Shown: positions 1-60,520 of the stretch, one piece after another
Layout of the letters: each line of letters begins with the position of its first letter
Numbering within the stretch: position 1 is the stretch's first letter
DNA from: Lophium mytilinum
Taxonomy: Eukaryota
Direction: 5' to 3'
Assembly: GCA_010093605.1 (NCBI GenBank)
Contig: MU004182.1
Span: forward strand, 1,769,032 to 1,833,031
DNA length: 64,000 bases
Made by a program: the position numbers and the translations under genes
The notes under the pieces: generated by a model
The model's input: only the letters and a program-made list of their open reading frames with translations
Told to the model about the DNA's origin: nothing
Database searches by the model: none

Positions 1-1050
1 AACTGCGACGTGTTTCAGTGGATTGCAGTGCTCATACGGGTAGAGGTTTGATGAAAAAGAAGTTCAGGCCAAGAGCCGTCGCCAGCTGTTAGGAAAAGAG
101 AAACCCTGTATAAATTACTGTATTGATTCCGTACATAATTTGTTGGGACTACTTTCACGTGTTTTGATGGGTTTGGAGAGGAAGTCCGTTATTGTGAACA
201 GGCTGTAACCTCACCGGCGACCTCAGACGTCTATATCAAAGTATTCGCCGCTCTTGACGCCTGCAGGATTCTAGAAAAAGTGTAGGATTACAGCGAGTCG
301 GAAGAAAGTGCCCAAACCTATCACGTGCTGTTGCAATCGTTGTACCATAGCCTGGAGAAGAAGATGGAGAGGGGGAAGGCTACTATGTGAAGAGGCTTTA
401 GGAAGATAATACTGATATTACTTGTTTTCTCGATGGTTACCTTCTCTATCTAGCTGGAGCTCATTGTCGACCGCCAGCATCAAGTCCTGGACAGCTCACA
501 CCCGTATATACCACTGTCGAGGTGCCACTGTTGTTTGCTAGGGACTACCATCAAGAGCAGTGCTCCCTTCCAGTAGCTGGCCAACGAAGAAGCATTCTGG
601 ACTGGTAGTCCTTATTTTGGATGCATCAAACTCCGCCTTGCGTTCTGGAACTCTGAAGCCTACGGGGCACTCTAAGCGGTGACCATGGAGAGTACTGAAT
701 CTGGCAAAACATTATAACTCACTTACGAAGTACCTAGTCCTTGAATCGACTACGTTGCTCTGAGCAATGAGGGTATTTCTTTGCCGCGATGTCCCTTGGA
801 ACATACGAGCCATAGAGTCGCTGAAGCAGGTGGGGCTGGACATGGCAGTGGCAGTGTAATAGGCAACAGTCCACTAGGCGCAGATACGAGGGTCTTCAGG
901 CTTCATATATTCACGAAAGGCGCAGTGTAGGGCGGCCTCGTTGCAAGGGCGGGGCGGGTTTGGGCGACGAGGTTGGAGTTTGCAAGGCTGACGGCGAAAG
1001 AGGCGCTGGTTGGCCAGAGCGACCCGCCCGGGCCACATCGAGCAGATGCT

Positions 1051-1070
1051 AGAACCTTCCGAACCTTTCC
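1051..1070. promoter_or_regulatory. Candidate heat-shock element upstream of hsp90
   Basis: aGAAc-cTTCc at 1051-1060 (two alternating nGAAn units), followed by a third GAA one base out of register. Further TTCnnGAA cores lie near 270 and 643. Confidence 0.4.
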
Positions 1071-1421
1071 TCAAGGCACAAATCGCAACTATTTCAGCTT
1101 CACCACCAAACTCATCTTCCTTTCTTCTTCCTCACTCGCCCTCCAACACAACCCAAATTCCACAACCTTCACTGCGCGCCCGCTGCTTCAGCCCAGCTTC
1201 CACGCACCCGCAAAGCATCGCTTGCCTCTCAATCGTGAGTCTTCTCGTCCATTACTGCAGCCTCGTCTATCTCTAGGTAGACTACATCCCACACAGCACT
1301 CGAAGGCGACTCCAGCCGTCTGAGTGCACATCCATTTTCTCACGGGCTTCAGCTTAAGGGCCTTGATTTTGAAGCTAACAAAGTCGTCGCAGACACCCTC
1401 GACACCGCCCCTCCTACAATC

Positions 1422-3579
1422 ATGCCTGCGGAAACTTTCGAGTTCCAGGCCGAGATCTCTCAGCTCCTCGGCCTGATCATCAACACTGTCTACTCAAACA
1501 AGGAGATTTTCCTGCGGGAACTGATTTCCAACTGCTCCGATGCTCTTGACAAGATCCGATATGAGGCCCTTTCCGACCCCAGCAAGCTGGACAGTGGCAA
1601 GGACCTCCGCATCGACATCATTCCCGACAAGGAGAACAAGACAATCACAATCCGCGATACTGGTATCGGCATGACCAAGGCTGTAAGTAAATATGGCTCG
1701 TACTACTCAACGCAACTGCTAACGATAATTGCAGGATTTGGTGAACAATCTCGGTACCATCGCCCGTTCCGGTACCAAGCAGTTCATGGAGGCCCTGACC
1801 GCCGGTGCCGACGTGTCCATGATTGGCCAGTTTGGTGTCGGTTTCTACTCCGCCTACCTCGTGGCTGACCGAGTCACTGTCATCTCCAAGCACAACGATG
1901 ACGAGCAATACATCTGGGAGTCGAGTGCCGGTGGCAGCTTCACCATTGCACAAGACACCGACGGTGAGCCGCTAGGCCGCGGCTCCAAGATCATCCTCCA
2001 CCTCAAGGATGAGCAGATGGACTACCTCAACGAGAGCAAGATCAAGGAGGTTGTCAAGAAGCACTCCGAGTTCATCTCCTACCCTATTTACCTCCACGTT
2101 CTCAAGGAGACTGAGACCGAGGTCCCAGACGACGATGCTGAGGAGAAGGAAGAGGATGAGGACAAGAAGGCCAAGATCGAGGAGGTCGACGACGATGAGG
2201 AAGAAAAGAAGGAGAAGAAGACCAAGAAGGTCAAGGAGTCCAAGATTGAGGAGGAGGAACTCAACAAGACCAAGCCAATCTGGACCCGGAACCCGCAGGA
2301 CATCACCCAGGAGGAGTATGCCTCTTTCTACAAGTCCCTCTCCAACGACTGGGAAGACCATCTTGCCGTCAAGCACTTCTCCGTTGAGGGTCAGCTCGAG
2401 TTCCGCGCCATTCTCTTCGTTCCCAAGCGGGCTCCCTTCGACCTCTTCGAGACGAAGAAGACCAAGAACAACATCAAATTGTACGTCCGCCGCGTCTTCA
2501 TCACTGATGATGCTACGGATCTCATTCCCGAGTGGCTCAGCTTCGTCAAGGGTGTTGTTGACTCCGAAGATCTGCCGCTGAACCTGTCTCGTGAGACTCT
2601 TCAGCAGAATAAGATCATGAAGGTCATCCGCAAGAACGTTGTTAAGAAGACCCTGGAGCTGTTCAACGAGATCGCCGAAGATCGTGAGCAGTTCGACAAG
2701 TTCTACACTGCTTTCAGCAAGAACATCAAGCTCGGTATCCACGAGGACTCCCAGAACCGTCAACAGCTGGCTAAGCTGCTCCGATTCAACTCGACCAAGT
2801 CTGGCGACGAGATCACCTCGCTTGCTGACTACATCACCCGCATGCCCGAGCACCAGAAGAACATGTACTACATCACTGGCGAGTCGCTCAAGGCCGTCCA
2901 GAAGTCTCCTTTCCTTGACTCGCTCAAGGAGAAGGGATTCGAGGTCCTATTCCTCGTCGATCCAATCGACGAGTACGCCATGACCCAGCTCAAGGAGTTC
3001 GATGGCAAGAAGCTGGTCGACATCACCAAGGACTTCGAGCTTGAGGAGACCGAAGAGGAGAAGGCTGAGCGTGAGGCCGAGGAGAAGGAATACGAAGGCC
3101 TCGCCAAGAGCCTGAAGAACGTCCTCGGCGAGCGCGTCGAGAAGGTCATCATCAGCCACAAGCTGATTGGCTCTCCATGTGCCATCCGTACCGGCCAGTT
3201 CGGTTGGTCCGCCAACATGGAGCGTATCATGAAGGCCCAGGCTCTCCGCGATACGTCGATGAGCTCGTACATGTCGTCGAAGAAAACTTTCGAGATCTCT
3301 CCCAAGTCTCCCATCATTAAGGAGTTGAAGCGCAAGGTTGAGGCTGACGGTGAGGAAGACCGTACTGTCAAGTCTATCACCCTGCTTCTGTTCGAGACCT
3401 CGCTTCTCGTCTCCGGCTTCACCATCGACGAGCCCGTCCAGTATGCTGAGCGCATCCACAAGCTCGTCTCTCTCGGTCTGAACGTGGACGAGGAGGTTGA
3501 GACTGCGGAAGAGGCGAAGGCGGACGACGCTGCTCCTGCTGAGGCTGCCGGCGAGAGTGCTATGGAGGAGGTTGACTAG
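1422..3579 (+). CDS. HSP90: Heat shock protein 90, cytosolic
   Basis: Exons 1422-1682 and 1735-3579, intron GTAAGT...GCTAAC...CAG. Motifs [22 protein letters not shown] and C-terminal MEEVD. Probable 5'UTR intron ends at 1392. Confidence 0.98.
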
Positions 3580-4174
3580 ACGCATCGATCGGTACAAAAG
3601 TTGGTTTGGCGCTATGATTCCCCCTCCACAGCTCCTCATGTGTTATGTCTCCCTTTTTCTCATGCCCTCCATCCTTTACATATCTGAACTAGTAATGATG
3701 CGATAGATGCGGCGGATGCATCTTTCGTTCTGGATCTGAAGGCGTCTCATTGCTGGCCCGGGGATGACTGGAGGGTTTCAAATCTGTGTACTTTATGAGT
3801 CCTTTACATGCCATTAGATGGGCTACCCTTCGGTAGTTCTTGGTAATGAAAAAACATGAATTCAAATTAAACGTTGATGACAAGGTGCTATATACTTATG
3901 ATATGTATTTAGGTAGGTTAGTGGGTTTATACCTGCTTTGATTACGGTTTGCTAGCTTTCAGACATTGATTCGGACAGCCAAGGAATCCTTCGCGATGTC
4001 ACTAGACCGCTCCGTGCCTATCTATCCTTGTTCGTCTTGCCTCGGAAGTCCCTGCGCAACATCGTCATCTCAAGCTTGCCTTGGCGTCTGCCTACAGCCT
4101 CACCCTTCCTAAATCTCTCCTTAGTCATATGAGTGCTACTTCTCACACTGTATTTAACGGTACATCTTCGCACA

Positions 4175-5922
4175 ATGGGCAGCTGGGATTTTTATTGCGC
4201 CTGCTGTGGAGGCGGTTTCAAACTATGGAGTGCCCTTCCACCCGCCGAAGAATGGGCGCGCATTCGGAAATTGCTCGAAGAAGGAAGTAAGCAGGAGGTC
4301 CCTAGGAAAAAGGATGAAAATGAGGAGGACGGTGAAGAGGAGGAGGAAGATGAAGCTGAGGATGACGATGAAGGATGGCTGGATTGCAGTATTTGCTCAC
4401 ATGAGAGTACGGATTGGATGAAGCATTTGCGGCTGCTGGGGCATAATCCGCACGGGAAGGTGGGCAGAGGGTGAGTGCAGCTTCTAATTGACAATTCTTT
4501 TTCCCAAGGATGAATATTGGGATCTTTCTAATGCGAATGTTGCTCGTAGCGTCTTCCTCACTGGCCTTGGTTATGCACAGGACTATGGCTCAACTGAAGT
4601 GGAGCCTGGTAACCATCCGAATGTCTTGACAGCAGATGGGCCGGACGTTCAGACCTATTACTCTGCTTGGGATGGGAAGTTGCAGCTTTCGGTGTAAGTT
4701 TTTCTGCTTGTTAGATCTTGGGGCTTGCTCTCTCTACCTGCATCCTGGGACTTCCAATTGTCCGATCTTATATGCCAAAATTATGATGAGGCGCTTCTGA
4801 CAGTGATAGGTACGTGAACGTACTCTCAACCGGTGACGAGCTGATCGATTTTCCACTTCCTTTCCACGACCAGTGTTTGCAGATGATTCGGCGCGTGATC
4901 TCCGGGAAGCCTGATGGAGAAATCAGTATTGATACTCTGTATGATGCAATGGGCACAGCACGTGGTGGTCTAGGCACCGAAAGAGATCCTAGGCCGTACA
5001 ACAACTCGAGTTTATTTCTAAACTATTATCAGTTCGCGGGGGCCGCGCGAGAGCAGTACTGGGGCGCGGATAGAGGGTATGAGGTAAGTTTCAGCTCAAC
5101 GTATTCCATCGATTCTCTACCCTCAATTTTCCTGCAATCACGCTTTCGGCCCCTGTTAGAATTGTTTTTTTCTTTTCCAAGCTTCTATATGTTTCTCCCT
5201 CTCTAGCATGTCTTCATATTATCTCTCAGAATTTGTTTTCGGTCGTTCCCTTTGGACTCTCTCTATACATAAACCCTCCCTTGGAATCAGCATGGCTGAC
5301 TACCCAACTAGCCCTGGTATAACGACCCAATCGACATTCCCGCGATTTCAAAGTTCCTAAAAAACCTACCTCGCGCCGCCCCTCCACGAGAGGTGAAGGC
5401 CAGCGATCCCGCCAAAGACCCCTTCGCAAAAATGCCGCTTGAACTCCTCGTCGAGATCATCATGCAACTCCCCCAAGAATCCCTCCTCCCCTTCTTCCTC
5501 TCTTCACGCGCAGCCCGCCTCGCAAGCCAATCGCAGTGGGTGTGGAAGAAGCGGATCCTGGTCGACATGCCATGGATGTGGGAGCTTGATGAAAAGAAGG
5601 ACTATCCGGAGGAAGTGGACTGGCATGCCGTGTATGCAAAATTGGATCGCCTGAGTTTTCCTGAGGAATGGGAGGGTCTTAAAGTTAGCAGCGGGTATGC
5701 TCTCGTTTTCTTTGACACGGGTATAATTCTTTATGGCGACTGACGTTCGAGAGTGGCATCACGCCTGAGCAAAGACTCGACTTGGACCTTTCTGGGCTGG
5801 CAAGCAGGGCTAGGATCTGGAAGTGTGCTGAGCAAGCGTGGGAGTTGTACGAGGAGCAGCCGCGAGACTTAGGAAGGAATCCGGGAAGGCGTAAGGCTAA
5901 GACTCCGGTGGTCGAAGACTAG
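4175..5922 (+). CDS. Multi-exon fungal protein with C-terminal F-box-like motif
   Basis: N-terminus MGSWDFYCACCGG, acidic tract, donors at 4471 (GTGAGT) and ~5083 (GTAAGT), F-box-like DPFAKMPLELLVEII, last exon LSGLASRARIWK...TAG at 5922. Internal exon boundaries are uncertain. Confidence 0.6.
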
Positions 5923-6655
5923 ACGTATGCTCAGCACTCAGCAAGGCTTTTCGTCGTTGAAATGAGGAGCCGATGTGAGGCTCATGTAACACGACAAAAC
6001 AACAAGCAGATCTCTCCCAAGTTTCACCCAAATTGAAACCCTTAAGCGACCTGCTGCACGCCAGATTATGGCTTGAGTTATTTCTAACTTTCAAGAAGGT
6101 TAGCCTAACTTTATGTAAGATTTGTATCGTGGTGCTTGTGCTTTAAATCGGCCGCTTATTTCGATGACGAAGAGCAAGCCCAGCGAAGTGTTCGTTCCCC
6201 ACACGCTAGCCTATTTTAGCTCAAAGTCTATCTTCGCGTTCCCGTCCAGCCTCATCTGATATTCCAAATAGCTTCAAGAGGCAGGCCATTGCGGTAGACT
6301 TGGTGCTCGTCGCTCCCAGGTCCCACGTCTCGGTCCCCATCTGCTCCACTAAACTAACCCCACTACCTACCTAGGTATTCCTTGCGGGGATGAATTAATG
6401 ACGTCGTCGTGAACGCAGCATTATCCTCCGCTTCGCCGAGGAACCTTTGCTACTTGGTTTTGCGCAAAGAAATGATGGCTCTACTTACTATGCGCTCGGT
6501 CGCAATATTCTATAAGCCTCGCCCGATGTGTGATATATAACTCGGCCGCCGTCGTTTGAGGCCGCAGTCTTTCAAAGCTCGGCCGAGGTCGTCGTCCTTC
6601 GTGTTATGAAGGTGTATATAGTCTCCTAACTCTTCTTTACTGCTATATTACTCAC

Positions 6656-7658: not shown

Positions 7659-10279
7659 TTACCACTCCTTCGGACCAAATGTATCGCCAGGTGCCACCCT
7701 TGCTTGGACAGCCGTATTCGCTACATCCATCGTAGTGTGGATGACGGTGTTGCCCCTAAAATCGATCCAAGTCTCAGATTAGCCAAGCTTCCATATTTCA
7801 TACAAAAGGCAACTCATCAAAGCTTCACTCACCACCAGCGCGGCGCATCAATCCGATTAAGCGTAAAAATAGCAAAAATAGTCAGCGTACTCAACGCCAA
7901 CCCAGTCCCCAGCGCCGTAGACGTGATATAGTTCAAGCGCGACCACCATCTCAGATGCCTCGTTCGAATGTACCACTGAAAGATAAAACCGACCGCACCC
8001 CACGTCAAGTAATTCATCGGCGATGCTGGTGGAATGTTGGTGCCGCCTCCGAGGATCACGGGCGCCATGGCGTATTTCAGCGGGGATTTCGGCCAGCGTT
8101 TTGCTGCAAAGTGGAGAATGAGCGATAAAGCAACGCCGAAGGGGAAAAACCATAGCAACGCGGAGTAGGTTTGTCCTAGACTAAACATTCGCTGGGGACC
8201 GAGCAGGCCCCAGATTACGGAGGCGGAGAAGAAGACGCGGCCGCCGGGGCAGGTGAAGCGCTGCTTTTGGTCGATGGTGCAGATGCCTTCGATATGGTTC
8301 AAGGCGAAGTTTAGGGTGTAGACTTGGACGATGCAGGCCAAGGTTGTGGCGACGACTTGGGCCGTGAACATTGTCCTGGGAGGAATCTTCATATAGTGTC
8401 CACTAGATCATCATCAACTTTAGTCAAATTGAACAGAATCTAAAAAGGTCCAAGGGAATGACACACAATTTCAAATCTTCCGTGAAATGAAGGGCTTGGT
8501 TTACGGTGATGTATCCGTACGTCTTAAACATCATCAGAGCTATGGGCTTCCCAGGCTGCATATAGCCCATTATAAACTCGGTGATGACATTCAGAGATAT
8601 GTGCTGAGTCGTGATTGCCTGTTCCGATATTAGTATTGAAAACTTTAAATTCGGCTGGGAGCTAGGAAAACCTACCTGAATTATCCCGCATGGTAATGCC
8701 ATCACAGATGCGAATACGATGCAGAGCAGGAATGCCCACCAAGCGAACTCAGTCGGGTAGGCCAGCACCACGACGAGCGACAGCGCCAGCATGAGCACGA
8801 ACAGAACAACGTACCACCACATGGGCGCCTCCGGGTACTTCAACATCATCTTCATGTGAATATCGGGCTTCTCTTCTTTTGAAGTTCGAAATTGTCTCAT
8901 AATTTCGTGGCGGTGATTCAACCATACGTAAACCACAAGCGATGACGTCGTGGCAAATGACATGCCATACGTGATGGCGAATGTGGTAGATAGGTACAAA
9001 GGCGAGTACGTTTTATACGCAGCTTCGTCCAAAGTAAGGTGGGATGTTGTGACCATCGAAACATTGTAGCGGACTCCGGTATTGTCGTAGGTTGACGAGT
9101 CACTGATGGGAAGGAACTTCGCATACCAAGCACCGCCATAGTGCAAGCCAGCCGTGCCGATAATATAAAAACTTACTACTCCGATCAAGGTGTTGGCAAT
9201 TGCATGCCAGGGCGGGATCAGTGGACTGCCGGTAAAGCCAGTGACGGTGGTCCAATCGAACGTGATAGGAAGAAGTCCAAGGCCAGTCGTTCCTCCGAAT
9301 AATTGGTTTATGACAGGACTCTTAGGGTATATCCAAGTCATGAATGTGCATATGCTGAGGAACTGGGCCAGAAACCCGGGAATCCAGTAATACCTGAAGT
9401 GGGAACGGTTATCTATTAAGACTTTAACGGCATCTTTAGGGGTCCTTACAGATACGACGCAATGGTAATGACACCGAACCACTTGAATCTCGACATATTC
9501 CCACCAAATACGGTCGGGTCTAGCTCTTCGTTATCGTCGTGCATAGCGTGCAGTAGGCTGACGCCGACCAAGGTTTGCGGCCACAGCATGGCTGCCGGGT
9601 ACACCAAGAACTTCCGGAGGAGGCCCGCAATTCCGTACCCAATACTTTGAGTAGTAACGACGAGCAGAATTTGAAATGCTATTCCGAAATTCTGCTTGTA
9701 GAAAACGACTTGGGCAAGTATGATGTCCGTCGCGTAAGCGGTCGAAAAGGATACCCCAGCCATAATACCAATGATGGTGTGCTCCTTGACGTTGAATGGG
9801 CCTGGATTAAGGTTCCACTTGACGCCAAATGTGTTGTTCTCTCTAGAAGGGACAAAGCGAGCCCATGCTTTGCCTAACGCGTATGCAATCAACAGAGCGG
9901 TCATTACACCAATACTGATATGAGGCTGTCTTAACCCAAACACGGTGTTGACCGCTGCGCCAAGCACAGAAAGGAGGATGCCTATAACCCACACTCGAAT
10001 GGTGTTGGCAGGTAGTTCCTTATCAAAATTTGGGACCGCTGCCTTGACCTCTGGGTATGGCGAGTTTTCTTCCTCGGCATCTGGTATCTGCTCAGTGCTT
10101 AACTCTACAGGGCGCGATTTCTCACCACCTGAGCCTGCCAATCCAAGTCCATCTTTGTCATCGGGTAGATTGAGGTCGCATGAGTTCAATCGAATTTGAG
10201 GGATATGCTTGAGAGAAGGATTGTCAGATGCCTGGGGCTGTACACCGGTGGCTTTGATAGCCGCATTTTCGGCATCCAT
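7659..10279 (-). CDS. OPT-family oligopeptide transporter
   Basis: EENSPYPEVKAAV, NPGPFNVKEHT, PIALMMFKTYGY, KIPPRTMF, C-terminus FGPKEW*. Several introns. Confidence 0.95.
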
Positions 10280-11808
10280 CCTCCCAGAACTGATAAGAAC
10301 AAAGGGAATAGAAGAAACTGAAAGTTGAACGATGTGGAGAGAACAGAGTAGTAATGCAACATGATTTTACTATGAACGGGGTCCATGTCGCCATATTGCA
10401 GAAGCCGACTAAAGCATTTCCACCGCATGAAAGCTCCGTCTACGGACCGCGCCGTCGCTAAGTTTTAACAACCTGTGTGAGGAGTAATGACGGGAGATCA
10501 CACCTTAGTAGCACCTTAACTCCCCTATCTCACTTTCAGGAATGATTGCGTGACGAGAAAGAAGACCATCAACACTGGGCCTATCGAATCGCTCGAAGCC
10601 GAAAAGCTTGTTGCATTTAGTATTGGAGGCATTGGTGGACTTGACGGCCGAAGGGCATCTGCGACATGGGCGGCCCACCAGAATGTCTTTTAATAACAAG
10701 GTCGAGACTGAGCCGTTTCTTGGTACTGTGGTGTGGTTGTGGTGACAATGAACTATGACTTCTGATAGGTATCACGCCGGGATTTGGACGCTATCGAAAC
10801 ACTTGACATGGGAATACTTAGAATGCCGTTCAAGACTATCCATGTCCTAAGGTAGTTAGCAGATGTCGGCCGACACGCTCGACGGTATTTGTGGAGGACA
10901 AAGTGGAGAGAGTTAGGTGTGAACCACGGGAGAAACTCCACCAGAGGTCTGAGGCCTTCAGGTAAATCTTTATCTGGATTTAGTAGTGCATCCTATTTAT
11001 AGAGCCTAAGCACGCGATGCCGTGCGATGGCTGTGTGTCGAGAGGGAAAGGTGGAAGGACGTGTGAGATATGAAGGGAGTCAACTGCTCGGAGATGACTC
11101 GGAAATGAGGCTCAAGAAAGGAACATTTCGAGCCCTCGACGTGCCTCTTATTATTACTCTTCGTCATCATCGGATAGCAGGTGCGCTCGCCTTCGACACG
11201 AGTACAGCTATTCCACCCCGAAGCCTCTTTGATAGCTTCGACCGACGTTGATGAACCCTGGAGTTGTGCACCCCCCCAGACTGGCTAATGTTCACAGCGT
11301 TGATGTGCTTCAAGTTTCATGGCCGGACTCACCGGAAGAGCATAAGGATGTCAGAATTTTGCGGTGTCTACATTAACTCATTGACTGGTGGGCCTAATGG
11401 TCTTTCAAAAGGGCGCGAGACTCCCGTTTGGTGTGTAAACTGGATCTTTTACACTCTGTCACAGGGCGACACGGTCTAATTCACGACTGCTTTGAAATCG
11501 CGCTAGAACAATATATTTACTCTAGGATGGCTTCGCAGGTTAGGCAATCATCTAGTCATTCGTAACGGTAAGCCTAGATAACGCTGTCACGAATTTTATA
11601 TTCCGTTTGGATCCTTGAGACCTATGGAAGAACTCAAACAAGAGCAATCGATCGTCAAATTGTGGCAATGAAGTGGGTGTATTTCCTAACGTTCTAGCTT
11701 CCCGCGTTCAAGTAATGAAAAGCGTCAATGAAAGAATACAAAAGCGAACCACAATCTGTGTCCTCTCCAGCGACATTTCCATACCCTTTCCAGTCCATCC
11801 TCGGTCTC

Positions 11809-12420
11809 TCAGTGGTGTCCCGTCTGCGCACTTGGGAGAACCATCTGCCAAATGTCGACCCCAAGCGAAAGGCTAGCCAACACTAAATTTACAACGAGGA
11901 TGATCACCAACCGTTTGGTGATTGGATTAGGTAGGTATCGCGTCTGGACGTAAATAAAGGCCGTGTGGAACAGGATGCTGAGAAACGTATAGCCGAGCAT
12001 GAAACCACGGAAGACGCGATTCCAACCGTCCCCTCGATTCCAACGATCCCTTCCCGTCATGATCATCATTCCAAGTAAGGCGGCCCAAAGGACTGCAGTG
12101 AGTGTACAAACCACGAAAATAATCATCTGAGATGAGTTCGAGACTCTCTCGAGCAGGTTCCTCCAGAAACGAGAGTTTCTTGGCGGCATGGGTGGAGTCA
12201 GCTGCCTTGGAAAATTCGGGAATGAAATGAATCGAGACGACCGCTCCTCGTCTGGCTCTTCTTGGGGCGGCCCGGCTTCATGGACCGTATTGACGAGAGT
12301 TGAACGTTCGGAAAGTGATTCTTCGCGTGGGTTGGGAATATCGCTCTCGATCGGTGCATCATCTGCGAAAGCGACGGACACTTCATCGGCGAAGGTGACA
12401 CGAGATTTGTTTCCAGACAT
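11809..12420 (-). CDS. Hypothetical membrane protein (acidic N-terminus, ~3 TM segments)
   Basis: 203-aa ATG-initiated ORF with three hydrophobic stretches. No recognised family. Confidence 0.55.
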   Translation of the reverse strand: MSGNKSRVTFADEVSVAFADDAPIESDIPNPREESLSERSTLVNTVHEAGPPQEEPDEERSSRFISFPNFPRQLTPPMPPRNSRFWRNLLERVSNSSQMIIFVVCTLTAVLWAALLGMMIMTGRDRWNRGDGWNRVFRGFMLGYTFLSILFHTAFIYVQTRYLPNPITKRLVIILVVNLVLASLSLGVDIWQMVLPSAQTGHH

Positions 12421-12694
12421 TGCGACAATGTTATCCGTGGTTTGGTGAGGTGGGGTGGTCTTCGACGAATTCTCTGGCTGTGGAAAGATAAAAGCAAAGT
12501 ACGCAGTTCAGGTTGCTACAGCAGAAACGATGAGAAATTGATGCAAGCCGGATGGATGCTAGACGGATGTATGGATACGCTGACAACCCCAAGAGCTGTG
12601 TTGGTGATGATGTAAGGAAGAAAGAAAGATGAGCAAGACATTTTCCATCGTAAAGAAGCATGGACCGTCCCTGGCGGAAAGAAGGTCACGCTGA

Positions 12695-12820
12695 AGGCAG
12701 GTAGATTTGAGGTGAGAAGGAGAAGAAGCTTCATGTGATGCAAGCAGGACTCGAAAGGCAGGTAGTTTTCAGGTGAGACGGGGAAGGAAGCTTCATGTAA
12801 TGCGTGTAGAACTCAAAAAG
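12695..12820. repeat. Imperfect 61-bp direct tandem duplication
   Basis: Copies start at 12695 and 12756 and share AGGCAGGTAG, AGGTGAGA and GAAGCTTCATGT.ATGC blocks. Confidence 0.8.
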
Positions 12821-12832
12821 TAGGCAGCATCG

Positions 12833-13297
12833 CCCGGAGCTATAACCGTAGTTTTCCTACGGCGGCCTCACTTAGTCTTTATATTTCCAGTAAAGTTCGA
12901 ACCTCACATTCTACTAATTGCCCAGCAGCTCAGTTGGTCGGCCACACCGAGTGTAAGCCCGCGGCCGAACCCAGGCACTTTTACCTCGCGAGGTGGGTTT
13001 TACCCACCGTCGACAACCTCACCTAGGTTTAGTAGTTGGTCTCGAGTTCGATCCTCGCATCGCCCATTCTCGACTCGGCCTTTGGTGTTGAGAGCTGGCA
13101 GCATTCCTTAGAAAACCGGCTCGGACGGGGACATAGAGAGGTTTGGAAGCCGGTAAAGAGGACGTATGCAGTTGGTGCGTGAGGCTTAGAGTGGCCGGTG
13201 AAGATTCGATGGATTGAACAATTGTGGGCTCCGGACCTCCTGGATGGATTTAAAGAAACCTCTCCGAGGTGGCTACACCCTCTAACGAGGGTGGTGT
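12833..13297. ncRNA. Candidate structured non-coding RNA of unknown class
   Basis: Many local and nested long-range helices. A-box-like AGCTCAGTTGG at 12927 and T-arm/B-box CGAG-TTCGATC-CTCG at 13043-13057 on the + strand. No ORF. Confidence 0.45.
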
Positions 13298-13446
13298 TTT
13301 GCTCCTTAGATATTGTTTTTCTTTTACCCTATATATATTCTATGCGTCGCTCTAGGCCTATTTTGGTTAATTAGCATAGTATAAGCAGTGTTATAAGATA
13401 TTTATTGTGGTAATACTATATGCAACTTTATCGTCAACTTAAAACT

Positions 13447-15432
13447 TCAAACCGGCTCAGCACTCGTTAACGGCCTCTTTCCCTTCCCACTCACACTCTT
13501 CTCCACATCCTCGCTCCCCCTCTCCTCCGCCTCCCCTACCGTCTTACTCTCCACCATAATCGCCTCCTCCTCGACCTCCTCCCCGATACTCAGATTCAGC
13601 AAAATAGCGAGCAGCGCCGTGACCGCAAAGCCCGTCTCCATCACCAACACAATCGCATCATAAAAACCTTGCAAACTCTTATTGTCACCGTGGTACGTAA
13701 ACACATTGCTGAACCACGTCGGCACGAGCGTCGCGCCATAGCCCACCGACAGCGCGGCAGTCAGGATGAACCGATTTCGCCTCGAGAACGGCACACGGGC
13801 TACGATAGCCATACCAGACACGGCGACGGCGCAGAAGAGGAACGTCGTCATGCCACCAAGCACCGACGCGGGGATGGCAACGAGGCTGGCGGCGAATTTG
13901 GAGAAGATACCCATGATGAGGAGGAAGAGGCAGCAGCAGTATCCTGCCTTGCGGTTGGCGCAGCGGGTGAGCGCGATGACACCGTTGTTTTGCGCGAAGG
14001 TCGACATGGGGGTGATGGTGCACAGGGCCGCGAGGAGGCCGTTAAGGCCGTCGGCTAGGATGCCACCTTGAATCCGGGAGTCGAAGATGTCGCCTTCGAC
14101 TTCGAGCTGGGACACGTCGCAGGTGGCGGTGATATCACCGATGGCTTCACAGGCGCAGATGATGTAGATCGTGATCATGGGGAGAACGAGGGGCCCGTAG
14201 ACGGTGAGGGGGAAGGTGTGGACCCAGATGAAGGAGACGGCGGGGGCCTGAGGGGTGCTTCATTAGTGAGGGATTGAGACTAAGGGGGCAAAGGACGTAC
14301 GGAGTCGATGCCTGAGCGGTCGAAGTAGCCGCATGCGCCTGCAATGATGCAGCCTACTAAAAGGCCCATAATGACGGATGCGGATTTCATGATGGGAGAC
14401 CCGAAACGTTCCATGATCAGGATAGTTACGAATACTGAGAAACCGAGGCCTTACAAGCTGTTAGCTCTGAATGCTCAGTTGAGGTTCAAGAACGACATAC
14501 CGATATACTCCGCAGAACCCCAGGCTAAAGCATGCGGTGCCGCAATATTGGGGCATAGAGCAAAGAAGTCAACAGCAGTAGCAGGAACCGCGCAAGGTCC
14601 GCTTCCGCCAGCCCATCCCTCGAACCCAGTACCAATCAAGGACACGCCGATCAACATGACGGTCGGACCAGTGACGATGGGAGGGAAGATCTTTTGGAGA
14701 GTCTTAGGAGGGGCAAATGATAACAAGATTTCAACCAAGGCGCAGACTGCCGCAGTACCAAGGAGGGCGCCGTAAGCCTCTGGGCAAGGTAATTTGCTCC
14801 CGTCTTCGGCTACTTTGCAGTATCCGTTGGCATACATCTGCGAGAAACCTCCTGAAGCGACAGGAATGATGGCAAAGGAAGTTCCAACGACAGAAATGAG
14901 ACCAGTACCGATGTGATACTGTGACCTGTTAGTTACTTCTTCAGATATTTCGTCGAAACCCTTAAGTTCATCGTTTTGCTTTCTCATGGCAGTTGAATGG
15001 TAAGACTGAGAATAGACTCACGGGTGTCTTCATGATGTGAAACCTGGTTATCTGAATGCTCGATAGGATGCCGCAAACGATCAGTGCCGTAGAGACGAGA
15101 TATTGCTGCTGATCCGGTGCGAGGTTGACGCCTGCAGGGCCTCCGAGGATGAGTGACGGAGTTACAACTCCCGCCAGCATCGCGAGCGCGTGCTGTAACC
15201 CAAGTATAAGAGCCAAGAAGACTGGCATGCGGTCGTTCAAGCTGAAGAATGGAGGCGTGACACTTTTTCTACCCATGAAGGGAATATTGGGCATAAAGAG
15301 GTAGGCGTAGTCGTAGTTCCCGAGGAGCCCTTCTCTCGTGAAGAACGTTCTCTTCAGGATCCTGGTGTAGTATCCAAAGTTCTTCTTGGGGCCATGGTCA
15401 GGGCCAATGGTATTTGGTCCTTCGTCCGCCAT
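13447..15432 (-). CDS. Uric acid/xanthine permease, NAT/NCS2 family (UapA/UapC-like)
   Basis: LGLQHALAMLAG, ACEAIGD and NAT signature QNNGVIALTRCA. Multi-exon. Confidence 0.95.
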
Positions 15433-15902
15433 CGTGAGTGGTTCGGCTAGGCGAGAAGGAGGGGGGCAAGTTTCAATGGAAGAGGGTCAAACAACAATGT
15501 CTATGCTTCTGCTCTACCCCCTATAGAATCATGCTGGGTTTTATACATAGCTGCTCGAGCTCCAGAGCTTCATAGCTCTGCTGCAGCGACTTCGGCGACG
15601 GCCGCCCCAGTGGTTCGGTTGTCGCGAGACTCCGGCGCACTGGGGTCGAGCGGGCCAGTGCAGCCAGGAGGCCTTCTGTTCGCGTGGGTGAGAAGCAGTC
15701 CCACGCGCCTGCCCGGGCTTCTAAATGGCGGGAGCTGATATGCTCACGTGGTGTTGGGTGGACATGTTTGGTGATCAAGAAGATAAGGAACGGCGGTTGA
15801 CTCGTGAGAGGCCTGGAGCTGCTTCCAAACCGCCGGTTTTCCTTGCTTGTGATAAATACGCTAAAGACTACTCACCACGGGCCGGTGCGATATGCATGCA
15901 TG

Positions 15903-15916
15903 TCGGCCGTTTCCGA
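15903..15916. promoter_or_regulatory. UaY-type binding site TCGG-N6-CCGA
   Basis: TCGGCCGTTTCCGA is an exact match, in the divergent promoter. HGATAR sites lie at 15781 and 15850. Confidence 0.65.
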
Positions 15917-16356
15917 CGCCATGTTTGTTTGCTGGGCTCAGCTCCCCGGCTTCCCCAAGATCGTGAAGACTTCATCGCGACATTCTCGTGGCTGCAGTAT
16001 TCTAGATGCCGACAACTAAAAACAACTTCAACGAGGCGTCGCTGCGGGCAAATCGCTCTCACTGCACCGAAGCCTTCTCGCTTGTCATGGACTTAATTGG
16101 TGGAGCAAACTTACAGACTTCGTGAATGCGTCGCGAACCTCAAGTGCAGGTGGGTAAGCGGAGGTGCCCGCCACCCCACCGAAAAGAAGCATTTTCGCTG
16201 TAAGACTTTGATATTCGAATATAATGTCGTCGAACCTTGTCATTAGATGCAAATGATCTCTATCTATACATCCCTTGACAAATTGGTCGTTATTTTCGAT
16301 TTTTGTAGTGATATCATCATTTCATCTCTCCGTCACTGCGCTATCAAATTTTGAAA

Positions 16357-17809
16357 ATGTTGTACATCAACGCAACCGTCGTCACGGTCAATGCGAACCG
16401 TGATGTCTTTCTCAATGGTGCAATTCTCGTCTCTGGGAACCTGATTAAAGAAGTCGGTAGAACTGCCGACTTGCTGGAGAAGTATCCAGATGAGCAGACA
16501 CATGATCTCGCTGGTCACATTGTCATCCCTGGCCTGATATCAACACATATGCACACAGCTCAGACTCTTCTAAGGGGTACACGGACCCCTACTTATTCAT
16601 TCAACTGAGTTAGAGCTGACCAACCCTACAGGCGCCGCCGACGACCTCGAGCTAGTCTCCTGGCTCTGCGAACGCATCTGGGTCCTGCAAGGCAACTTCA
16701 CCCCAGAAGACGGCTACGCCGCCGCGCGCATCAGCATCGCCGAGATGCTCAAAACCGGCACCACCTGCTTCCTCGAGAGCATGTTCGCCAACCGCTACGG
16801 CTTCGACGGCCTCTGCAAAGCCGTCAGCGAGTCCGGCATCCGCGGCTGCCTAGGCAAGATAGTCATGGACATCGGCACCTACGCCAAAGACCCAAAATGG
16901 GCCATGCATCCAGGACTCGTCGAAGACCGCGAGGTGTCCCTCTTGGGCGCCCTTGATATGCACGAGAAGTGGGATAGGGCCGCCAACGACCGCATCCGCG
17001 TCTGGTTCGGTGCTCGCACCCCTGGCGGAGTCTCTGAGGCGCTGTATAAAGAGATGACGGCGCTTTCCCGCGAGAAAGACATCCCCATTACGATGCACTG
17101 CGCGGAGGTCAAGGCGGACCGGGAGTTCTTCGCCTCGCTGAGCCCGCCGCAGACGCCCATGTCGTTTTGCGAGAACGTGGGGCTGTTGGGCCCGAGCACG
17201 GTACTGGTTCATATGGTGCACTTGGATGATACGGATATCAAGAAGTTGGCGGAGACGAACACGCATGTGGCGCATTGCCCGACGTCGAATGCGAAGCTAG
17301 CGTCTGGCATCTGCCGTGTGCCGGATCTGTTGGACGCAGGTGTTAATGTGGGCTTGGGAACGGATGGCGCGCCTTGCAACAATACGAATGACTTGATGCA
17401 GGAGATGAAGCTTGCGGGGATTATTCATAAGGCCAAGTCGTATGATCCGACATTGGTACCTGCTGAGACGGTGCTGGAGATGGCGACTATCAATGGTGCT
17501 AAAGCTCTTGGTCTTGAAGACTCGATTGGGAGCATTGAGGTTGGGAAGAAGGCAGATTTCGTGGCTGTGGACATGAGAAAGGTTCATTTGCAGCCTTACT
17601 ACAACCCTGTCAGCGCCATTGTGTATTCGGCGACAGGGGGCGACGTCAAGCTGGTCGTTGTAGACGGCCAGATTGTGGTTGAGGATGGGAAGCTCAAAAC
17701 GATGGATGAAGAGGAGATATGGCAGGAAGGAGAGAAGCGTGGCCACCAGATCGCGGCGAGGGCTGGACTGGTTGATAAGGTAAAGGGAAGATGGCCACTA
17801 ATTTCTTGA
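16357..17809 (+). CDS. Metal-dependent amidohydrolase (AtzA/TRZ, MTA/SAH-deaminase-like)
   Basis: THMHT, MHCAE, VHMVH, HCPTSN, GTDG, GSIEVGKKADF. Intron 16577-16631. Confidence 0.9.
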
Positions 17810-50189: not shown

Positions 50190-50900
50190 AGAGTGAATTA
50201 CGGATTGGACGGTGGTGAGGGCCCTTTTTGGTAAATGCTGGGTGCCGCTCGGCGTCAACGATATTTGGGTACGAGAGGGGGGGTTTATGGGAGTTTTAGG
50301 GCAAGTACTCACGAGTCGAACCGTTGAAATAGCGGTTTTTTAATATGTCGGGTACCACGCGGCGTCGACGATGTGCGAGTACGATAGAGGTCCTATCGGG
50401 GAGTCTTAGTGCAAGTTCTTACGAGTTGAACTGTAGGGCCTGGTTTTAGCGCAGCTGCTGTGTACCACGCTACGTTAACTTTTTGTGAGTACAAGGAGGG
50501 TTGTTCTAGGGACTTCTCTTATAAGTACTCACGAATCGAACCGTTGAAACAGCATTTTTGTTAGACGCAGGTTACCACGCTGCGTCAACCACCCGTGAAG
50601 TACAAGGAGGGCCGCTCTTGGGAGTCTCAATGCAAGTACTCACCAATCGAACCGTGGAGATGCCTTTTCTTATTATACGCCGTGTACTATACTGCCTCGA
50701 TAACGTCTGCAAAGAACAAGGCCCGTTTTGGGGGCTTTTCGTGCAAGTACTCACGAATCGAACCGTCGAAACAGTGTTTTTTATTAGACGCGAAGTGCCA
50801 CGCTGCGTCAAATAATATGGGAGCACACAGAGGGTCGATTGAGAGACTTTTTGTGGAAGTACTCACGAATTGAACCGTAGAAATAGTATTTTCAGACACT
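50190..50900 (-). repeat. Tandem array of ~110-bp units with Pol III B-box/A-box-like motifs (tRNA-like)
   Basis: Core GCAAGTACTCACGAATCGAACCGT at 50301, 50411, 50521, 50632, 50743 and 50855, plus a degenerate unit at ~50190. Period 110-112 bp. Confidence 0.9.

Positions 50901-59302: not shown

Positions 59303-60520
<1,218 letters not shown>

Follow-up and report, generated by a model that had tools for sequence, protein, structure and literature searches.

The segment at positions 12833–13297 raises the question of whether a stretch of DNA rich in complementary words, lying between two genes, is itself the gene of a structured RNA. The window, meaning the whole 64,000 nucleotides of DNA that were analysed, is eukaryotic and fungus-like, and the segment is located within a 1-kb gap between the stop codon of a permease gene and the start codon of a gene for an HXXEE-domain protein, both on the minus strand. 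A preliminary description, made from the letters alone, had read the segment as a single large, multi-branched noncoding RNA that loosely recalls RNase P/MRP RNA, and had named a mobile-element origin as a fallback.

Contigs of three runs were placed on positions 9000–17000 of the window. Two of these runs (X1 and X2) are DNA from one sample, and the third (X3) contains spliced RNA. X3 contains a contig of 6.2 kb that skips four introns with GT..AG or CT..AC ends, and since this one contig is joined across four introns the run is treated as one that contains RNA, its label being only a guess. Introns 14247–14299, 14449–14499 and 14919–15021 have CT..AC ends and belong to the minus-strand permease gene, while intron 16576–16630, skipped by the same contig, has GT..AG ends and lies on the plus strand. 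The contig over 13254–17000 thus crosses introns of both strands, and therefore spans genes on opposite strands.

The permease gene lies to the right of the segment. Three of its ORF pieces match Pfam Xan_ur_permease (13447–14178, E 1.8e-32; 14475–14987, E 3.8e-12; 14968–15432, E 8.3e-7), and they are spliced together in the X3 contig, so that the intron bounds of this xanthine/uracil permease gene are now experimental. The last exon occupies 13447–14246 on the minus strand, with the end of the coding sequence at 13447 and with the intron joint 14246/14300 taken from the X3 contig. Over 13254–14246 the contig has zero letters that differ from the window, and its cover extends to at least 13254, about 190 nt past the stop codon. 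Because the contig of spliced permease mRNA extends this far to the left, the right end of the segment lies probably within the permease mRNA 3′ UTR. The segment had been described as intergenic, which is correct for coding sequence but probably not for its right end; the statement that it contains no ORF was essentially right, as there are only mechanical ORFs of 48 and 58 amino acids within it.

The gene on the left flank, at 11809–12420 on the minus strand, matches the HXXEE domain (PF13787) with E 1.6e-5, just above the cut-off, and has its start codon at 12420. X3 contigs lie on 11990–12327 and 12307–12630 in the region of this gene, so that RNA is present for at least 210 nt ahead of the ATG, either because the 5′ UTR is long or because another transcript lies upstream. 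Also upstream of this gene, and adjoining on the left the sequence that is discussed below as a repeat, are two tandem units of about 61 nt at 12694–12827, which are 78–88% identical. The pair is absent from the output of Tandem Repeats Finder at score 30.

A search of the segment against Rfam had been suggested. No family reached the gathering threshold anywhere in the 64-kb window, and no RNase P, MRP, SRP, telomerase or intron model matched even at E 10. With E up to 10 there were only chance snoRNA matches (snoR77 and snoZ188, E 4.5–8.3), and no tRNA match. ARAGORN found no tRNA genes in the window, nor did it find one in the stretch at its default threshold once introns were permitted; lowering the threshold to 80% and 70% produced only mutually overlapping calls on both strands, which were taken as noise. 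Neither of two exact-pattern scans of metagenome contigs, run with 22-nt pieces of the repeat, returned a locus, and an index of other genomes contained no look-alike of the stretch, either by sequence or by place and relatives. BLASTN against a plasmid collection also gave no match, but such a collection is of no relevance to a fungus.

The complementary words on which the RNA reading was built are all present, at the place given for them or at most one base from it. Self-BLAST and the minimum free energy (MFE) helices recovered the long-range pairings CCGGAGC 12834–12840 with GCTCCGG 13228–13234 and CTACTAA 12911 with TTAGTAG 13029, together with the hairpins at 12846–12862, 12938–12968, 12992–13008, 13115–13154 and 13276–13293. 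However, words of this length are no more frequent than chance: the segment contains 10 perfect inverted 7-mers against 6.9 ± 3.3 in 500 dinucleotide shuffles, 112 of which reach 10, and 2 inverted 8-mers against 1.7. Shorter inverted words are moderately enriched, with 42 6-mers against 27.3 (13 of 500 shuffles) and 146 5-mers against 107.7 (1 of 500).

Folding energies gave a divided answer to the z-score check that had been proposed. On the plus strand the segment is unremarkable, with an MFE of −159.7 kcal/mol and a z-score of −0.63 (66 of 300 shuffles were as good, and a separate run gave −0.70). On the minus strand the MFE is −165.3 kcal/mol and the z-score −2.96 (0 of 300 shuffles; −2.87 in a separate run). 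When 274 strand-windows of 465 nt from the 64 kb were ranked after adjustment for composition, the minus strand came 2nd and the plus strand 62nd. The part of the segment that is identified below as the core of a repeat (12911–13218) has no fold signal, with z-scores of +0.06 on the plus strand and −0.71 on the minus strand. The minus-strand value close to −3.0 is therefore tied to the bounds originally drawn for the segment, and is lost on changing them.

Two other places in the window also rank highly in this comparison. The strongest composition-adjusted outlier of the 274 strand-windows is the plus strand of 5858–6322, with a residual z of −3.89 (−2.10 on its minus strand); near it is a 15-nt inverted repeat, 5825–5839 with 5923–5937, that is 87% complementary. 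The minus strand of 59333–59797 ranks third, with a residual z of −2.77.

The DNA contigs give a different picture of the locus. In both DNA runs the long unique contigs agree with the window letter for letter, but they break off at 12934 and take up again only at 13277; their lengths are 11.8 and 12.2 kb in run X1, and 13.4 and 12.2 kb in run X2. From 12934 to 13277 there are contigs of only 73–223 nt, each with 1–7 letter differences and small indels relative to the window. The variant contigs have depths of 134–235 each in X1, compared with 166 for unique DNA in X1 and 137 in X2, and one X2 contig has a depth of 481. At the places listed, depths sum to 743–2800 in X1 and 814–4229 in X2, which is about 4–17 times unique DNA in X1 and up to about 31 times in X2. 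At 13218 and at 13320 some contigs cease to match the window, and their flanks from there on are unlike the window and unlike each other (agreement 0.57–0.68); at other loose ends the sequence of the window can still be recognized, with further changes. Since the unique contigs break here, many variants of approximately single-copy depth lie between them, and the flanks differ, it is concluded that the stretch is one copy of a dispersed family, with roughly 4–30 diverged copies depending on the segment considered.

The stretch thus very probably belongs to a dispersed repeat, whatever the class of that repeat, and the multi-copy, dispersed pattern in the DNA contigs favours the earlier fallback of an origin from a mobile element. 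BLASTN of 12421–13446 against the window found no second copy within the 64 kb, its only matches being the nearby 61-nt duplication and chance words no longer than 18 nt. An origin from mitochondrial DNA (NUMT) or from rDNA was considered and dropped, given a G+C content of 0.51–0.56, variant contigs at approximately single-copy depth, and no match to an rRNA or tRNA model.

The reading with which the analysis began, a single-copy gene for a divergent RNase P/MRP-like or other large structured RNA, is effectively excluded. The nested complementary words exist, and the minus strand folds well at the first bounds; the likeness to RNase P/MRP RNA is nevertheless one of size and nested-helix appearance only. 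Against it are the multi-copy nature of the stretch, the ordinary folding of the plus strand and of the core, the chance rate of inverted 7-mers, and the failure of any RNase P or MRP model to match or of the conserved regions to be found. Genes for RNase P and MRP RNA are not expected to be multi-copy.

The limits of the repeat differ between copies. A core at 12905–13218 is the part found in the largest number of other copies: contigs match from 12905 and differ at 12904, and two copies diverge after 13218. (Positions of the repeat are given on the plus strand, which is that of the Pol III-like words described below, and is not meant as the strand of an RNA.) A left extension at 12862–12904 is common to some copies only, and here two contigs from each run have a C in place of the T at 12904 and stop 31 letters to the right of it. 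The left limit of this extension, about 12862, is an estimate from the depth of bins in X3; in X1 and X2 the bin 12471–12737 has no more than the depth of the unique contig. A right extension at 13219–13320, common to several copies, overlaps the probable 3′ UTR of the minus-strand permease gene. Here the contigs 13189–13267, 13190–13267 and 13201–13283 carry 4–6 other letters, and two or three contigs in each DNA run diverge after 13320.

Comparison of the copies also bears on the helices. The 7-bp hairpin GGTGGGT/ACCCACC at 12992–13008 is kept, with no differing letters over 12983–13015 despite several variant contigs there. In the 7-bp hairpin CACCCTC/GAGGGTG at 13276–13293, where the summed depth in X1 is 2063 compared with 172 for unique DNA, the listed differences between copies are all in the loop (13284–13286) and none are in the stems. 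The helices are partly features of the repeat, as these two hairpins appear to be, and partly chance.

As to the kind of repeat, we consider that the stretch is an old and decayed copy of a low-copy, dispersed family of tRNA-related, SINE-like retroposons, and would give this reading a probability of about 0.55. The SINE class, transcription by Pol III, its strand, and retroposition are all points that we infer. On the plus strand an A-box/D-loop-like word, AGCTCAGTTGGT, occupies 12927–12938; this exact 12-mer occurs once in the 64 kb, and its likeness was judged against the consensus of the tRNA A box. A piece resembling the 3′ half of a tRNA gene follows at 13037–13066 and consists of a B-box/T-arm word, AGTTCGATCCTC, with a match to the B-box core at 13046, and then an acceptor-like strand. 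The sequence read contains no complementary 5′ acceptor strand for this piece. A second B-box-like word, AGTTCGAACCTC, lies at 12894–12905, upstream of the A-box word, and has 11 of 12 letters in common with 13045–13056.

The A-then-B pair (12927 and 13045, 118 nt apart) has no second instance on either strand of the window, using patterns that were written after the sequence had been seen and with the tRNA consensus in mind; one or more pairs of this kind appear in 22 of 300 shuffles. Three copies of the word AGTTGGT fall within 250 nt (12932, 13034 and 13170), and a cluster of this kind was found in 0 of 300 shuffles. The pair thus argues weakly for a tRNA-related origin, and the AGTTGGT cluster argues for it more strongly.

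A tRNA gene split by one or more spliceosomal-type introns would also place a D-loop word and a tRNA 3′-half-like piece 118 nt apart on one strand, and there are a GTAAGC word (12953) and several AG words between the two pieces. We regard such a gene as very improbable. Each of 29 GT..AG candidates of 36–140 nt was removed in turn, and in none of the 29 cases did ARAGORN then find a tRNA. In addition, the acceptor-like strands do not pair, and the repeat extends far beyond any tRNA.

In the SINE-like reading, an internal Pol III promoter made up of the A-box word at 12927 and the B-box word at 13045 would drive a transcript starting slightly upstream of the A box, near 12905–12915. Similarity to several of the copies begins at 12905–12911, which is 16–22 nt upstream of the A-box word, and a Pol III start is expected at about that distance. 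Enzymes of a LINE-type element would then copy the transcript back into DNA at another place in the genome. The right end of the repeat has T runs at 13296–13299, 13316–13320 and 13322–13325 on the plus strand, which are possible Pol III stops; similarity to the other copies ends at 13320. A TA repeat is found at 13330–13338, and the two copies that leave at 13218 continue A-rich.

The copy in the window also has a TTTT run at 12979–12982 (plus strand) that is absent from most other copies, and which could act as an early Pol III stop. Of 743 depth units in X1, 533 have C at 12980, G or C at 12981 and C at 12982, as do all three of the X3 contigs at this place. With no tRNA fold, no flanking duplication and an acquired TTTT run that is rare in the other copies, the copy in the window looks dead. 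The X1 contig nearest to this copy (12938–13012) differs from it by one letter and by a 2-nt gap near 12979, within the TTTT run; this difference between window and run may be one of assembly or of homopolymer length.

Several features count against a SINE. The distance of 118 nt from A to B exceeds that in tRNA genes, where it is about 30–90 nt. The ends are ragged, with copies beginning at about 12862 or at 12905–12911 and ending at 13218 or 13320, so that the repeat unit may be composite. No target-site duplication was detected, in that no direct repeat of at least 7 nt, or of at least 9 nt with one mismatch, links 12738–12925 to 13205–13360. Neither ARAGORN nor Rfam recognizes a head derived from a tRNA, and all that is left to suggest one is the D-loop word and the 3′-half-like piece. 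Finally, the only fold signal is on the minus strand, opposite to the promoter words.

Some of these features could be explained if the repeat were of another class. It might be a solo LTR, a fragment of some longer retroelement or DNA transposon, or a dispersed repeat that fits no class, and the tRNA-like words would then have been captured or have arisen by chance, and would not form a working promoter. We see this as the main alternative, though a less likely one than a SINE. A multi-copy, dispersed pattern suits any class of repeat, as do ragged ends without a target-site duplication or a cloverleaf, and the promoter-word pair is found in some of the shuffles. For a solo LTR, no TG..CA ends with a 4–6-bp duplication were found in the end zones tested, which is a weak test since the true ends are uncertain. 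For a MITE, there is no terminal inverted repeat longer than 7–8 nt between the end zones, and 7–8 nt is the chance level. There is no transposase or gag-pol ORF nearby, and the three AGTTGGT words together with the piece resembling a tRNA 3′ half are hard to obtain by chance.

Other members of the family are present in the run that contains spliced RNA. X3 contigs bearing the letters of other copies cover 12937–13015 and 13136–13217. At 12980–12982 and at 13187 all the X3 contigs have the letters of other copies, and 13219–13253 is without X3 cover, observations that have no bearing on whether the copy in the window is silent. The contigs show neither the strand, the ends nor the level of the RNA, and depths were not used for ranking expression. 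The copies seen in RNA may be fragments of mRNAs, or of some longer element; RNA contigs of the copies would also be expected from LTR-driven or read-through mRNAs, and to that extent are consistent with the repeat being of another class.

The presence of copies in RNA raises the further question of whether the family has a function. It might be a small family of functional, tRNA-derived ncRNA genes of Pol III type, possibly structured and not mobile, to which the locus would belong as a member or a pseudogene. In its most novel form this reading would make the family a lineage-specific structured small RNA, with transcripts in the cell that keep at least the hairpins 12992–13008 and 13276–13293, and the locus a decaying member of it. 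The reading is improbable. The copies in the spliced-RNA run, the low copy number, the two hairpins kept among copies (the second with changes in the loop only) and the folding of the minus strand, which is better than 300 of 300 shuffles, count in favour of a functional family. On the other hand, the fold signal is gone in the core on both strands and lies opposite the promoter words, indels and numerous substitutions separate the copies over just a few hundred bases, and neither Rfam, the two metagenome scans nor the index of other genomes contains anything similar.

Fungal SINEs of comparable appearance have been described. Mg-SINE of Magnaporthe grisea measures roughly 0.47 kb, and its 5′ part is tRNA-related. 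It is reported to fold in a tRNA-like manner (PMC5063351), which the present element does not do, as judged by ARAGORN and Rfam. A closer parallel is provided by the AfuSINE2 families of Aspergillus fumigatus, which are described as low-copy elements of 140–493 bp with degenerate A and B boxes and no cloverleaf (Kanhayuwa & Coutts, 2016; PMC5063351). According to the same paper, target-site duplications are partly degraded in some of the families, the elements have a gene-rich location, and some families are transcribed. The element studied here resembles them, by description and not by sequence, in its size (about 310–460 bp), low copy number, degenerate A- and B-box-like words, lack of a cloverleaf and location in gene-rich DNA. 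It differs from the AfuSINE2 families, as described there, in its A-to-B spacing of 118 nt, in having no target-site duplication at all, in its ragged ends, and in that its transcription by Pol III is only presumed. Published fungal tRNA-related SINEs thus share this loose profile (PMC5063351), which counts in favour of the SINE-like reading. Literature listings and the openings of abstracts contained nothing specific on SINEs in Dothideomycetes.

The consequences for the annotation of the locus are simple. A candidate novel structured RNA is removed, and about 12862–13320 is marked as repeat DNA, which in part probably lies within the permease 3′ UTR and ahead of the gene that follows; the significance beyond annotation is small. 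Fungal SINEs are poorly catalogued, so that describing the family from every copy in the assembly would add modestly to what is known. More generally, a fungal intergenic island that is dense in hairpins and bears promoter boxes calls for a check of its copy number before it is taken for an RNA gene.

One other region of the window contains words of the B-box type. It has no BLAST similarity to the repeat at 12862–13320, and consists of an array on the minus strand of 50190–50900 that repeats about every 110 bp, the units of which keep a B-box-like core of the GTTCGA type (at 50313, 50533 and 50755).
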